Assembly: GCA_964446575.1 (NCBI GenBank)
Contig: CAYUOX010000013.1
Coordinates: 69,430 to 133,429 of the forward strand
DNA: 64,000 nt
Direction of reading: 5' to 3'
DNA from: an uncultured Anaerolineaceae bacterium
GTDB lineage: Bacteria; Chloroflexota; Anaerolineae; Anaerolineales; DRMV01
Under the pieces are notes generated by a model that ran no database searches, was not told where the DNA came from, and saw nothing but the letters and a program-made list of their open reading frames with translations. Position 1 is the first letter of the stretch. Every line of letters begins with the position of its first letter. Positions 478 to 2,390 of the stretch are shown piece after piece. A program made the translations under genes and the position numbers.

Positions 478-2390
478 CCATGCCGTTCATCCAAGTGGAA
501 ATGGCCATTGTGGGCCTGCTATTGCTGGCCATCTTCGTCGGCCTGCTGACCAAACGGTTGCGCGTGCCCTACACCGTGGGGCTGGTGCTCTTCGGGCTGG
601 CGCTCACCCTGTTGACCGACATCGAGGTCAATCTGGGGGGCGACATCATTCTGGCCGTGCTGGTGCCCCCCTTGGTGTTCGAAGCCGCGTTTCACATCAA
701 ATTCGACCAACTGCGGCGAGAGTTGGGCCTGGTCATCCTGCTGGCTGTGCCGGGCGTATTGCTGACCACCTGGATGGTGGGTTGGCTGCTCTCGGTCTCA
801 TTGCCCGGCACCCTGACGCTGCCCATTGCGCTGGTGTTCGGCGCGCTGGTCTCGGCCACCGACCCCGTCGCGGTGGTGGCCTTGTTCCGGGCCCTGGGCG
901 CGCCCAAACGGCTGCAGATCCTGCTCGAGGGCGAAAGTCTGTTCAACGACGGCACGGCCATCGTAGTCTTCCACTTGGTGCTCGCGCAGGTGTTGCAAGC
1001 CCACGGGGACGAGTTCCTCTTAGGCCCCGCGGTGGTGGAATTCACCAAAGTCGCGGGGGGCGGCCTGTTCGTTGGGCTGGCCTTGGGGCTGGTGGCGTCG
1101 TTGCTCATCGCCCGGGTCGACGACCACCTGATCGAAACCACCTTGACCACGGTGTTGGCCTATGGCGCGTATTTGGTGGCCGAAGAGTTCTTCCATGTGA
1201 GCGGCGTGCTGGCCGTGGTCATGGCCGGCATGATTGCGGGCAACATCGGACCCCGGGGCATGACCCCCACCACGCGCATCTCGCTGCTCAACTTTTGGGA
1301 ATACGCGGCGTTTCTGGCCAACACATTCGTGTTCCTGCTCATCGGCCTGCAAGTCGACTTGGGGCTGGTGTGGCAATATCGGGGAGCAGTGCTGCAAGCC
1401 ATTGCCGCGGTATTGGTCACCCGCTTCGTCATCGTCTTTGGCCTGAGTCTGCTCTTGCGCCGCGCGCTGCCCCCGCGCTGGGCCGTGGTGCTCTTCTGGG
1501 GTGGCCTGCGCGGAGCCATTTCGCTGGCTTTGGCGCTGGGCTTGCCCACCGACCTGGGCGCGGACGCGCGCGGCCTGCTCCAAGCCTTGGCCTTTGGGGT
1601 CGTGCTGTTCACCCTGCTGGTGCAAGGGCTAACCATCGAACCGCTGATTCACCGTTTGGGGCTGATCGGCCGTGCGGCCGAAGAGCGGGAACTCCAGCGT
1701 TTGCGCGCCCGGCTGCGGGCTGCGCAAGCCGCGTTGGAGCGCATCCAAACCTTGCATCGTCAAGGCGTGCTCACCACCGCGACGTATCGCACCATTGAGC
1801 CCATCTTGCGCCAACGGCAACAACGTTTGCAGCAAGCCATCGCGGAGTTGCTCCGGGAACATCCCATGTTGGGCCTGGAGGAACTGCGCCTGGCCCAGCA
1901 AGAGGCCTTTCACGCGCAACGGGCGGCGTTGCACGACTTGCTCATCGCGGGCGGGTTGTCCGAAGAGGTCTACCACGACCTGGTGGCCGAACTCGACCAA
2001 TCCGTGGTCGACGCTGCCGTGCCCCCCTGGCCGGGCTGGGCCTTGCGTCGCAGCCCCGACGAACCCCCCATCACTGCGCTCACCGCGGCGGTCATCCATC
2101 AGGACGATTTGGGGCGGGCCATGGCCGCGCTGGAAGGCCTGGGCGTTCCGGTGGTCGACCTGCCTGCTGAAGGTGGTTTCTTGAGCCAACGGCGGGTCGT
2201 GCTGCTGCTGCCGGTGCCCGAGGGGCGACTTCCCCAAATCATCGAAACCTTGGACGCGGCGTGCCGCCGCCGGGTGGACTGGGCGTTGCAAGGGTGGCGG
2301 CCGCGGGTGCCTATCCCCATCCCACGGCGGGTGGTGGTCGGCGGGGTCAACGCGTTCGTGCTGCCCGTCGAACACTTCGAGGAGTTGTAA
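474..2390 (+). CDS. CPA1-family monovalent cation/H+ antiporter (NhaP type) with coiled-coil linker and C-terminal DarA/PstA-like (PII-like c-di-AMP receptor) domain
   Basis: About 12 hydrophobic helices carry typical CPA1 segments (ATDPVAV, LLEGESLFNDG, WGGLRGAISLALAL). A Q/R/L-rich helical linker follows. The last 106 aa read LTAAVIHQDD...AEGGFL...VGGVNAFVLPVEHFEEL. Confidence 0.85.
   Translation: MTMPFIQVEMAIVGLLLLAIFVGLLTKRLRVPYTVGLVLFGLALTLLTDIEVNLGGDIILAVLVPPLVFEAAFHIKFDQLRRELGLVILLAVPGVLLTTWMVGWLLSVSLPGTLTLPIALVFGALVSATDPVAVVALFRALGAPKRLQILLEGESLFNDGTAIVVFHLVLAQVLQAHGDEFLLGPAVVEFTKVAGGGLFVGLALGLVASLLIARVDDHLIETTLTTVLAYGAYLVAEEFFHVSGVLAVVMAGMIAGNIGPRGMTPTTRISLLNFWEYAAFLANTFVFLLIGLQVDLGLVWQYRGAVLQAIAAVLVTRFVIVFGLSLLLRRALPPRWAVVLFWGGLRGAISLALALGLPTDLGADARGLLQALAFGVVLFTLLVQGLTIEPLIHRLGLIGRAAEERELQRLRARLRAAQAALERIQTLHRQGVLTTATYRTIEPILRQRQQRLQQAIAELLREHPMLGLEELRLAQQEAFHAQRAALHDLLIAGGLSEEVYHDLVAELDQSVVDAAVPPWPGWALRRSPDEPPITALTAAVIHQDDLGRAMAALEGLGVPVVDLPAEGGFLSQRRVVLLLPVPEGRLPQIIETLDAACRRRVDWALQGWRPRVPIPIPRRVVVGGVNAFVLPVEHFEEL

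Follow-up and report, generated by a model that had tools for sequence, protein, structure and literature searches.

A CPA1 cation/proton antiporter fused to a PstA/DarA-type cyclic-di-AMP-receptor domain in Anaerolineae, with pocket substitutions fixed in one clade

In many bacteria, the homeostasis of K+ and osmolytes is governed centrally by cyclic di-AMP (c-di-AMP), which controls cation/proton antiporters via RCK_C domains. The antiporters KhtTU and CpaA are of the CPA2 type and sense c-di-AMP via RCK_C/TrkA_C domains. PstA and DarA, members of the PF06153 family, are homotrimers with a long B'-loop that bind c-di-AMP at their subunit interfaces with a sub-micromolar Kd. A 2023 review states that c-di-AMP activates the K+ exporters KhtTU (KhtT) and CpaA, that the partner of DarA/PstA has "escaped its identification" and that the function of these proteins is an open question (PMC10636490). 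A 2026 preprint has since linked S. aureus PstA to GlnR/GlnA and not to a transporter (PMC13484208). Genetic data from a B. subtilis strain without c-di-AMP bring an antiporter and the receptor into the same picture, as suppressors include nhaK(S187F) in a cation:proton antiporter that eases K+ toxicity, and loss of darA also helps such a strain (PMC7857571). Our literature search for a CPA1 antiporter fused to a CdAMP_rec domain found no paper describing this architecture.

Here we analyze a gene of this architecture in a 64-kb stretch of DNA (the window) from an uncultured Anaerolineaceae bacterium. The gene is a single unbroken open reading frame of 638 residues on the forward strand (positions 474 to 2390), as are all features described below for the window, and it ends with a TAA codon at 2388-2390. 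Public gene calls place the start two codons downstream, at the ATG at 480, which yields 636 residues; an SD-like GAGGG is found ahead of the start at 468-472. No Rfam family matched anywhere in the 64-kb window. The first part of the gene encodes a CPA1 transmembrane core (positions 522 to 1649, residues 17-392) that matches Na_H_Exchanger (PF00999) with an E-value of 2.3e-70 and 237.8 bits versus a Pfam cut-off of 26.2. The a_cpa1 model TIGR00831 also matches above its cut-off (292.8 versus 279.6 bits) over residues 11-510, a span that includes the linker described below. We would expect a CPA1 protein to have a TDP motif in an unwound TM4, S155, an N-D pair in TM5, a Glu in TM3 and two Arg residues, with ion-binding and electroneutrality roles that we take from the PaNhaP and MjNhaP1 structures. 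These residues are present as T129-D130-P131, S155, N158-D159, E70, R317 and R346, and E70, D130, P131, S155, N158, D159, R317 and R346 are invariant across 120 homologues. An N-D pair in TM5 marks CPA1 members, whereas a D-D pair is found in the electrogenic CPA2 type. An AF2 model of the full-length protein (pLDDT 85.8) has an NhaP/NHE fold, with Foldseek TMt values of 0.76-0.82 to the SOS1 core, NHE1 and PaNhaP. The best explanation is that the fusion gene encodes a predicted electroneutral Na+(K+)/H+ antiporter of the CPA1 (NhaP/NhaK) type. Beyond the core, the model has a cytoplasmic linker of four long helices (residues 402-429, 435-462, 464-491 and 497-514; positions 1677 to 2015). An internal start that would yield a free tail domain was considered and rejected, as the stretch from the linker to residue 550 contains no Met.

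The protein ends in a PII-like domain (residues 533-638, positions 2070 to 2387) whose sequence reads exactly as quoted in an earlier note on this DNA, in which a CPA1 antiporter naturally fused to a DarA/PstA-like domain had been proposed. This proposal is borne out by profile, fold and homologues. CdAMP_rec (PF06153) matches residues 536-637 over profile positions 3-108 of 109, and thus nearly its full length, and its gathering cut-off of 27 bits is exceeded both by the whole protein (34.1 bits) and by the isolated domain (38.9 bits). A phmmer search of PDB sequences gave significant matches solely to the PstA/DarA chains 3m05, 4rle, 4rww, 4d3h and 4wk1 (E-values of 5e-6 to 8e-5). When an AF2 model of the tail domain alone (pLDDT 86.7) was searched with Foldseek, ranks 1-11 were all members of the PstA/DarA family (4rww, 3m05, 4d3h and 4rle; TM 0.66-0.82, and 0.72-0.81 within the first ten ranks), with 4rww_C as best match (E 9e-9, TM 0.79/0.81), while canonical PII proteins appeared lower in the list, starting at E 8e-5. 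These results confirm that the antiporter ends in a genuine PstA/DarA cyclic-di-AMP-receptor-type domain. The domain falls far below the cut-off of the DarA equivalog model NCBIfam NF058593, with 36-41 bits versus 140.

The fusion is not peculiar to this genome. All 120 best homologues of the full-length query, which come from Anaerolineae/Chloroflexota MAGs, measure 624-753 residues and share 46-100% identity with it, have the same antiporter-CdAMP_rec architecture, and a precomputed PF06153 match is on record for 119 of them. The fusion architecture is common in Anaerolineae. Searches with the tail domain are less informative on this point. Word-indexed searches with residues 400-638 or 533-638 yielded no more than the 7-8 nearest proteins because the window domain has too few 5-mers in common with the rest of the family, and a contig scan with the tail domain found a single close MAG, L004. 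A library-wide phmmer search with the tail domain returned no protein of at least 600 residues and missed the domain's own cluster, which makes it unusable for counting fusions. Fused fragments are frequent among the library representatives, where the Pfam-scanned antiporter fusions are C-terminal fragments.

To describe the ligand pocket we use PstA numbering, based on an alignment to LmPstA and BsDarA. The pocket segment of the window tail, PVVDLPAEGGFLSQRRVVLLLP (residues 559-580, positions 2148 to 2213), retains the GGFL T'-loop of PstA 34-37 as G567-G568-F569-L570 (positions 2172 to 2183), a motif that we take to be required for binding in PstA. The B-loop kink and beta4 read GGVNAF (residues 623-628, positions 2340 to 2357), such that the GGA kink (94-96) has become GGV through A96V while G94, G95 and F99 (F628) are retained. 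The pocket also has six replacements, G26P, T28V, N41R, T43V, G47P and T97N, with V561, R574, P580 and N626 as the window equivalents of T28, N41, G47 and T97. Thr97 and Phe99 form the stacking face of the PstA pocket. The main-chain amide of LmPstA G47 reads adenine N1 (main chain N1/N6), and the change from G47 to P580 removes this NH donor. The phosphate-contacting His/Gln near the C terminus is replaced by Glu in the window, which is the family consensus as well. The side chains of T28 and N41 bind ribose/adenine in PstA and their replacement by alanine impairs binding, with measurable binding lost in T28A and Kd increased ~26-fold or more in N41A (PMC4316997, PMC4475381). Thus, of the earlier reading of this motif as that of a c-di-AMP receptor, the GGFL loop stands, while the six replacements and a DarA model score of at best 41 against 140 bits speak against it for this copy.

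The wider family has a different pocket. Residues at the PstA positions are retained among the 120 fused homologues as follows: T28 in 85, G34 in 120, F36 in 113, N41 in 89 (with Ser in another 21), T43 in 95, G47 in 109, G94 in 116, T97 in 106 and F99 in 119. Judged from this alignment, the family consensus keeps most of the residues that contact c-di-AMP in PstA. The window copy belongs to a clade of 10 sequences that is joined to the tree by a long stem with 100% branch support, and its pocket substitutions are fixed in all ten. Even its members with as little as 71% identity retain the derived residues of the clade (V/I28, D29, R41, V43, P47 and N/S97), and GGFL, G94-G95 and F99 are invariant within it. 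Relative to L004, dN/dS is 0.036 for the transmembrane core, 0.028 for the linker and 0.121 for the tail domain, which is thus under purifying selection. Neutral drift or decay of the tail domain is excluded by this ratio together with the conserved derived residues. Since the domain is under purifying selection, the window copy would still be functional, with an altered ligand response.

The fusion family is accompanied by a second receptor-like protein that is absent from the earlier note. Next to the long domain, relatives nearly always encode a downstream CdAMP_rec paralogue of ~90 residues that is devoid of the B-loop and has T28 and G47. Within our order-level sample these long and short forms occur in constant order and most are adjacent, and they retain different parts of the pocket. 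Short forms keep F25 and R26, T28 (19/20) and G47 (19/20), with N41 (6/20) and G94-G95 lost; in long forms, N41 is retained (14/17) and G94-G95 mostly so, with positions 25-28 variable. The window tail has the lowest PF06153 score among the long forms of the order (37 versus 42.9-83 bits). The short paralogue of the window genome is unlinked to the fusion gene and lies on contig C33 (L002 1501-1767). It has 88 residues, scores 57 bits with CdAMP_rec and retains T28, and it is the most divergent short form at pocket positions (F36L, N41H and G47A). We know of no such long/short receptor pair from Firmicutes.

Gene neighborhoods tie both forms to cation transport. Free long and short pairs adjoin Na_H_Exchanger genes without a tail (four genomes), a CitMHS permease (one genome) and the MGH1-like hydrolase (two genomes). 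The earlier note regarded the fusion as Rosetta-stone evidence that links DarA-type receptors to cation antiport; at the family level this link is genuine, and the free pairs beside Na_H_Exchanger genes concur. Directly upstream of the fusion gene lies the 3' end of an MGH1-like glycoside hydrolase gene (positions 1 to 477, cut by the start of the window), which was recognized by tblastn with a full-length relative (L050:585-2966; PF22422, 69 bits) that matches positions 13-312. Its TGA stop (475-477) shares bases with the ATG of the antiporter at 474, and the same hydrolase is found directly upstream in L004, L055, L056, G431, G418, G404 and G362. The hydrolase gene is thus a conserved neighbor on the upstream side of the antiporter and probably its operon partner. 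The genome also has the diadenylate cyclase that the earlier note had suggested looking for: contig C27 contains a CdaA of 291 residues (PF02457, 140 bits) with a CdaA_N transmembrane domain and the motifs DGA and RHR. A YbbR/CdaR gene comes next, and the two constitute an intact cdaA-cdaR operon as predicted from sequence.

Architecture, fold, conservation and selection are observed, as are cdaA and the synteny. From these we propose that the tail is probably a regulatory domain of the DarA type that works with the short paralogue. The tail domains and short paralogue would assemble as a PII-like oligomer beneath the transporter; this heteromer and its stoichiometry we purely infer. c-di-AMP made by CdaA would bind at the subunit interfaces of the oligomer and alter antiporter activity, most likely by stimulating cation efflux as in KhtTU and CpaA. 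This would serve K+/osmotic homeostasis, with the antiporter probably encoded in one operon with an MGH1-like (compatible-solute-hydrolase-like) enzyme. The tail pocket of the window clade has been remodelled, and the short paralogue no longer lies beside the fusion gene. The whole of this explanation, a CPA1 antiporter with a DarA-type tail, a short paralogue, c-di-AMP control and a re-tuned clade pocket, is one that we favor with modest confidence. Its parts differ in strength, as c-di-AMP sensing by the tail is likely for the family, while for the window copy we regard it as possible yet somewhat short of probable. Should the window copy sense c-di-AMP, the sole plausible site would be formed by the GGFL/G94/F99 face of the tail and the T28 face of the unlinked short paralogue.

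The strongest competing explanation is that the clade domain no longer binds c-di-AMP and acts as a pseudo-receptor, that is, a structural, oligomerization or auto-inhibitory module. We consider this rather unlikely, albeit a serious contender. It would account for the replacement of six pocket or motif positions, among them T28 and N41 where alanine impairs binding (PMC4316997, PMC4475381), for the loss of the main-chain NH donor through G47P, for the lowest PF06153 scores of the order being found in this clade, for its lost linkage to the short paralogue and for its long stem branch. However, GGFL, G94-G95 and F99 are invariant in the clade, and the window genome retains a short paralogue with T28. 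Additionally, conservation of the derived residues to 71% identity and the dN/dS of 0.12 fit a re-tuned pocket better than an irrelevant one. That same fixation under selection, located exactly in the pocket, could alternatively indicate a changed ligand, with R40-R41 and P47 now sensing another nucleotide or metabolite such as ATP/ADP/AMP or another cyclic (di)nucleotide. The PII superfamily does have varied adenine-nucleotide ligands, several of which SbtB is stated to bind, but no positive evidence points to a ligand other than c-di-AMP, and PstA-type domains are without the Walker-A-like B-loop with which PII binds ATP (PMC4475381), nothing similar to which has been gained here; a changed ligand therefore appears improbable to us. 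Finally, a mis-assembly or frameshift joining an antiporter to a separate darA-like gene has nothing in its favor and practically no credibility, as it is refuted by the continuous reading frame, the same architecture in 120 independent homologues of 624-753 residues (NCBI, JGI, ENA and Logan assemblies) and its presence in nine genomes of the order.

Returning to c-di-AMP control through tail and short paralogue, there is a symmetry mismatch to consider, as CPA1 antiporters are dimeric and PII-like proteins trimeric. To our knowledge, the transporter family of the window fusion is dimeric in all solved structures. One speculative solution, which we hold to be unlikely, is that two fused tails and one short subunit form a 2:1 PII-like heterotrimer with one composite c-di-AMP site. 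In this site, the GGFL/N41/G94/F99 face of a tail would meet the face of the short subunit that has R26, T28 and G47. If this were true, then the composite site would be the sole one left in the window clade, where it would be re-tuned (N41R, T97N), and the joint divergence of both partners and their possible loss of linkage would be explained. The same idea, extended to Firmicutes, would make CPA1 antiporters such as NhaK possible targets of free DarA/PstA.

The significance of the family lies in part in giving DarA/PstA, long an orphan receptor, a concrete and testable membrane target that is either CPA1-fused or Na_H_Exchanger-adjacent. The family also introduces a long/short receptor pair. 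Being a naturally occurring variant of the pocket that purifying selection maintains, the window copy offers a built-in comparison for the roles of pocket residues, and is a poorer start than canonical members for demonstrating c-di-AMP control.

When compared with known systems, the window tail shares fold and family with PstA (S. aureus, L. monocytogenes) and DarA (YaaQ, B. subtilis) as judged by HMM and Foldseek, and it has their short GGFL T'-loop, GG kink and F99 in a genome with a diadenylate cyclase. In contrast to these free proteins of ~109 residues, the window domain forms one polypeptide with a membrane transporter, has a B'-loop that is a few residues shorter and has T28, N41, T43, G47, G26 and T97 replaced, and its family is accompanied by the loop-less paralogue. 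NhaK, presumably a CPA1 member, is likewise a cation:proton antiporter that is genetically tied to c-di-AMP; unlike the window fusion it is without a CdAMP_rec domain, and we know of no reported DarA-NhaK interaction. In Foldseek the full-length model comes closest to the eukaryotic exchangers sea-urchin SLC9C1 and plant SOS1, in which a CPA1 core likewise precedes a long helical cytoplasmic region and then a C-terminal nucleotide-sensor-type domain. Their sensor has a CNBD fold (for cAMP/cGMP in SLC9C1) whereas the window tail is PII-like, and the tails are not homologous. GlnK-AmtB and SbtB-SbtA provide a precedent for coupling a PII-fold nucleotide sensor to a membrane transporter, and SbtB is stated to bind c-di-AMP too (PMC8654305). 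GlnK and SbtB are separate proteins that dock by a long T-loop on trimeric (AmtB) or partner transporters, while the window sensor is fused. KhtTU and CpaA similarly place cation/proton antiport under a cytoplasmic nucleotide-sensing module, but the window transporter is of the CPA1 type and its module is a PII-like domain of the PstA/DarA type. Cation/proton antiporters under c-di-AMP control are already known, and the combination of a CPA1 antiporter with a PII-like receptor would be a variant of these.

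The antiporter gene of the window (474-2390, plus strand) is one uninterrupted open reading frame of 638 amino acids that carries two Pfam domains, Na_H_Exchanger at residues 17-392 (2.3e-70) and CdAMP_rec (PF06153) at residues 536-637, the latter covering profile positions 3-108 of 109. An alternative start at ATG 480, giving 636 amino acids, is used in public gene calls of the identical protein (P0003), and an SD-like GAGGG lies upstream of both ATGs (474 and 480). An earlier note had described a CPA1 antiporter fused to a DarA/PstA-type domain, and its coordinates and quoted tail peptide agree exactly with the sequence. 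The fusion is real, as PF06153 scores above its cut-off of 27 bits both in the whole protein (34.1 bits) and in residues 533-638 alone (38.9 bits), and the tail has a PstA/DarA fold. The transporter part belongs to TIGR00831 (a_cpa1; 292.8 bits against an NCBIfam cut-off of 279.6) and contains E70, T129-D130-P131, S155, N158-D159, R317 and R346, which from NhaP structures we take to be transport residues; all but T129 are invariant across the best 120 homologues. With an N-D instead of a D-D pair the exchange is presumably electroneutral, again on our assumption from the NhaP structures.

Analysis of the 106-aa tail with phmmer against all PDB sequences returned only PstA/DarA-family chains as significant (3m05, 4rle, 4rww, 4d3h and 4wk1; 5e-6 to 8e-5). 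When the tail was modelled with AF2 from 34 tails of the fused family (pLDDT 86.7), Foldseek ranks 1-11 for the model were PstA/DarA chains, the best being 4rww_C (E 9e-9, TM 0.79/0.81), with canonical PII proteins appearing lower in the list, from E 8e-5. The full-length AF2 model (pLDDT 85.8, pTM 0.73) comprises a CPA1 core, four long cytoplasmic helices (402-514) and a beta-alpha-beta-beta-alpha-beta-beta domain, and its closest structures in Foldseek are SOS1, SLC9C1, NHE1/3/9 and PaNhaP. In the eukaryotic CPA1 exchangers SOS1 and SLC9C1 the core is likewise followed by a helical stretch and a domain of nucleotide-sensor type.

The same architecture is present in all of the best 120 homologues of the whole protein (46-100% identity, 624-753 amino acids). 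A precomputed PF06153 match exists for 119 of them, the exception (P0009) having the domain below threshold. Their named sources are Chloroflexota, Anaerolineae or Anaerolineales MAGs, and their annotation holds nothing beyond "Na+/H+ antiporter" or "CPA1 family". Several tail matches with a C-terminal CdAMP_rec, obtained by all-library phmmer and then Pfam, are C-terminal fragments of such antiporters. No paper describing an antiporter-CdAMP_rec fusion was found in the literature searched. Other CdAMP_rec architectures in public data (P0085, P0095 and many matches of 210-260 amino acids) comprise a MatE fragment or a PolyA_pol head joined to the domain and proteins with two CdAMP_rec matches, apparently in tandem.

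The PstA pocket is built by two neighbouring subunits (Choi et al., PMC4475381), with G26-A27, T28, the main chain of G47 and the C-terminal His on one face and the GGFL T'-loop, N41, G94, T97 and F99 on the other (PMC4475381). Measurable binding is abolished by T28A and by GGFL-to-AAAA, N41A raises the Kd 26-fold or more, and F36A weakens binding (PMC4316997, PMC4475381). In PstA numbering, this pocket is largely conserved across the best 120 fused proteins: T28 in 85, G34 in all 120, F36 in 113, N41 in 89 (S in 21), T43 in 95, G47 in 109, G94 in 116, T97 in 106 and F99 in 119. The window copy reads P26, V27, V28, D29, GGFL, R41, V43 and P47, then GGV-N97-A-F99. R41, P47 and V43 occur together in exactly ten of the 120 sequences, all of which also carry V/I28, D29 and N/S97. 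This window clade (P0001, P0004-P0009 and P0161-P0163; identity 71% or more) is supported at 100% (SH-aLRT) and sits on a long stem (0.54) in a domain tree obtained by a quick search of 110 columns. Decay of the window domain is ruled out by its dN/dS of 0.121 relative to MAG locus L004 (0.036 for the TM core, 0.028 for the linker) and by the conserved derived residues; the pocket was thus remodelled under selection. While HMM and fold place the tail in PF06153, it scores only 41 bits against the NCBIfam DarA equivalog cut-off of 140, and the ligand contacts T28 and N41 are absent (V28, R41). Consequently, the tail is a PstA/DarA-like domain rather than a demonstrated c-di-AMP receptor. We lean slightly against the window tail still binding c-di-AMP.

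The genome of the window organism (2.45 Mb, 96% complete) does contain a diadenylate cyclase. A cdaA-cdaR operon lies on contig C27 (L001:83-2229, minus strand), the cdaR gene, with YbbR repeats, following cdaA in an arrangement as in Firmicutes. CdaA has 291 amino acids, a CdaA_N transmembrane domain and a DAC domain (138-140 bits) with DGA and RHR motifs, and on this sequence evidence the organism can be predicted to make c-di-AMP. A short CdAMP_rec paralogue of 88 amino acids without the B-loop is encoded on contig C33 (L002:1501-1767, plus strand; 57 bits, with a weaker P-II match), between a gene for a VTT/DedA-like membrane protein and a dGTPase-like HD gene. It retains T28 and R26 and has the replacements F36L, N41H and G47A; no other short form diverges as much at pocket positions. 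Since pocket positions are altered in each, tail and short paralogue have both changed in the window lineage.

CdAMP_rec genes occur in 27 of the 46 sampled genomes of the window's order, no PF06153 match being found in the other 19, and almost all 27 have a pair. The long form, free or in a 634-714-aa frame, covers profile positions ~3-108; the short form of ~90 amino acids matches only positions ~1-65 and in most genomes comes immediately after the long form. Nine genomes have the long form within the 634-714-aa frame. A short gene is adjacent in G418, G404, G362, G407 and G408, and two such genes are present in G415 and G424; it lies on a different contig from the fusion in the window's genome and in G431, of the same family, and no short gene is found downstream of the fusion in L055 and L056, which represent the remaining two branches within the window clade. 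Among genomes sampled across the phylum, the best PF06153 E-value lies between 1e-13 and 1e-24 in all those of the order and comes from long/short pairs, and other classes have mostly high-scoring canonical DarA genes, commonly at 1e-30 to 1e-42. Residues were counted in 20 short and 17 long forms, small samples from mutually related genomes. Short forms retain F25, R26, T28 (19/20), GGFL and G47 (19/20). Lost from them are N41 (N in 6/20) and, along with the B-loop, the G94-G95 kink. Long forms retain N41 (14/17) and mostly G94-G95 and T97, with positions 25-28 variable. In the domain tree, a branch supported at 96% has the long forms on one side, and short forms are one group (97%) sitting with canonical DarA of Firmicutes and other Chloroflexota classes. 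The complementary pocket conservation suggests that long and short subunits may co-assemble, in which case the canonical site would form between the loop face of the long subunit and the T28 face of the short one. More speculatively, two tails of a dimeric antiporter might join one short subunit in a 2:1 stoichiometry.

Upstream of the antiporter is the 3' end of an MGH1-like glycoside hydrolase gene (1-477, plus strand; PF22422 in full-length relatives of ~800 amino acids), the stop of which (TGA, 475-477) overlaps the antiporter ATG at 474 as ATGA. The MGH1-like family is named after a compatible-solute hydrolase. Relatives at L050:585-2966, L036:1-1419, L055:1529-3976 and L056:1489-3930 match PF22422, with weak or faint Trehalase matches. 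The hydrolase is syntenic with the antiporter in L004, L055, L056, G431, G418, G404 and G362 and directly upstream of free long/short pairs in G427 and G130; its recurrence, at no fewer than 9 other loci, beside the antiporter or free pairs suggests a module of osmolyte hydrolase, antiporter and receptor. Free pairs also lie behind a tail-less Na_H_Exchanger (416-449 amino acids) and a third small PII-like gene in G417, G403, G043 and G006 (L045, L046, L049 and L051), the third protein having weak P-II matches in L045 and L051, and behind a CitMHS/ArsB-type permease in G019 (L044). Thus, recurring neighbourhoods tie the receptor pair repeatedly to Na_H_Exchanger genes, once to a CitMHS permease and also to the MGH1-like family. 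These links are evidence independent of the covalent fusion, and they fit a c-di-AMP role in K+ and osmolyte homeostasis (PMC10636490). Downstream, the ATG of an M20/M25/M40 peptidase gene (2392-3762, plus strand) comes one base after the fusion stop (TAA, 2388-2390) and dprA (3765-4934, plus strand) follows after 2 nt, with no functional link of either to the antiporter evident. The peptidase-dprA order is also seen in L056, and the peptidase in L004. YggT (PF02325) and PF1765-like/DUF167 genes precede the hydrolase at L055:922-1525 and L056:850-1465, a synteny that would fall just upstream of the window start.

The earlier interpretation is supported in part, for the fusion, the fold, the cyclase and the surveyed architecture, but not for the DarA equivalog level or the T28 and N41 contacts of the window copy. 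The basis for a mechanism is a CPA1 core that is intact, followed by a helical linker and a tail of PstA/DarA fold, together with a pocket conserved across the family, a partner paralogue, cdaA-cdaR and purifying selection on the tail. We propose that c-di-AMP would bind interfaces of a tail/short-paralogue oligomer and that binding would relieve or impose inhibition of the exchanger via the helical linker and would most likely promote cation efflux. This direction is preferred by analogy, because K+ exporters are activated by c-di-AMP (PMC10636490). In the window clade this input may have been re-tuned or lost, and the fusion family is of more interest than the remodelled window copy.

The DarA partner was called unidentified in a 2023 review (PMC10636490), and GlnR/GlnA has been proposed as the target of S. 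aureus PstA in a 2026 preprint (PMC13484208). In B. subtilis without c-di-AMP, suppressors occur in the cation:proton antiporter gene nhaK and in darA (PMC7857571), which would fit a DarA-antiporter link without being evidence for one. Control of cation/proton antiporters by c-di-AMP through RCK_C domains is already known for KhtT and CpaA, as is the gating of transporters by PII-type proteins in GlnK-AmtB and SbtB-SbtA. What is new is the PstA/DarA type of sensor on a CPA1 exchanger, together with a long/short receptor pair.
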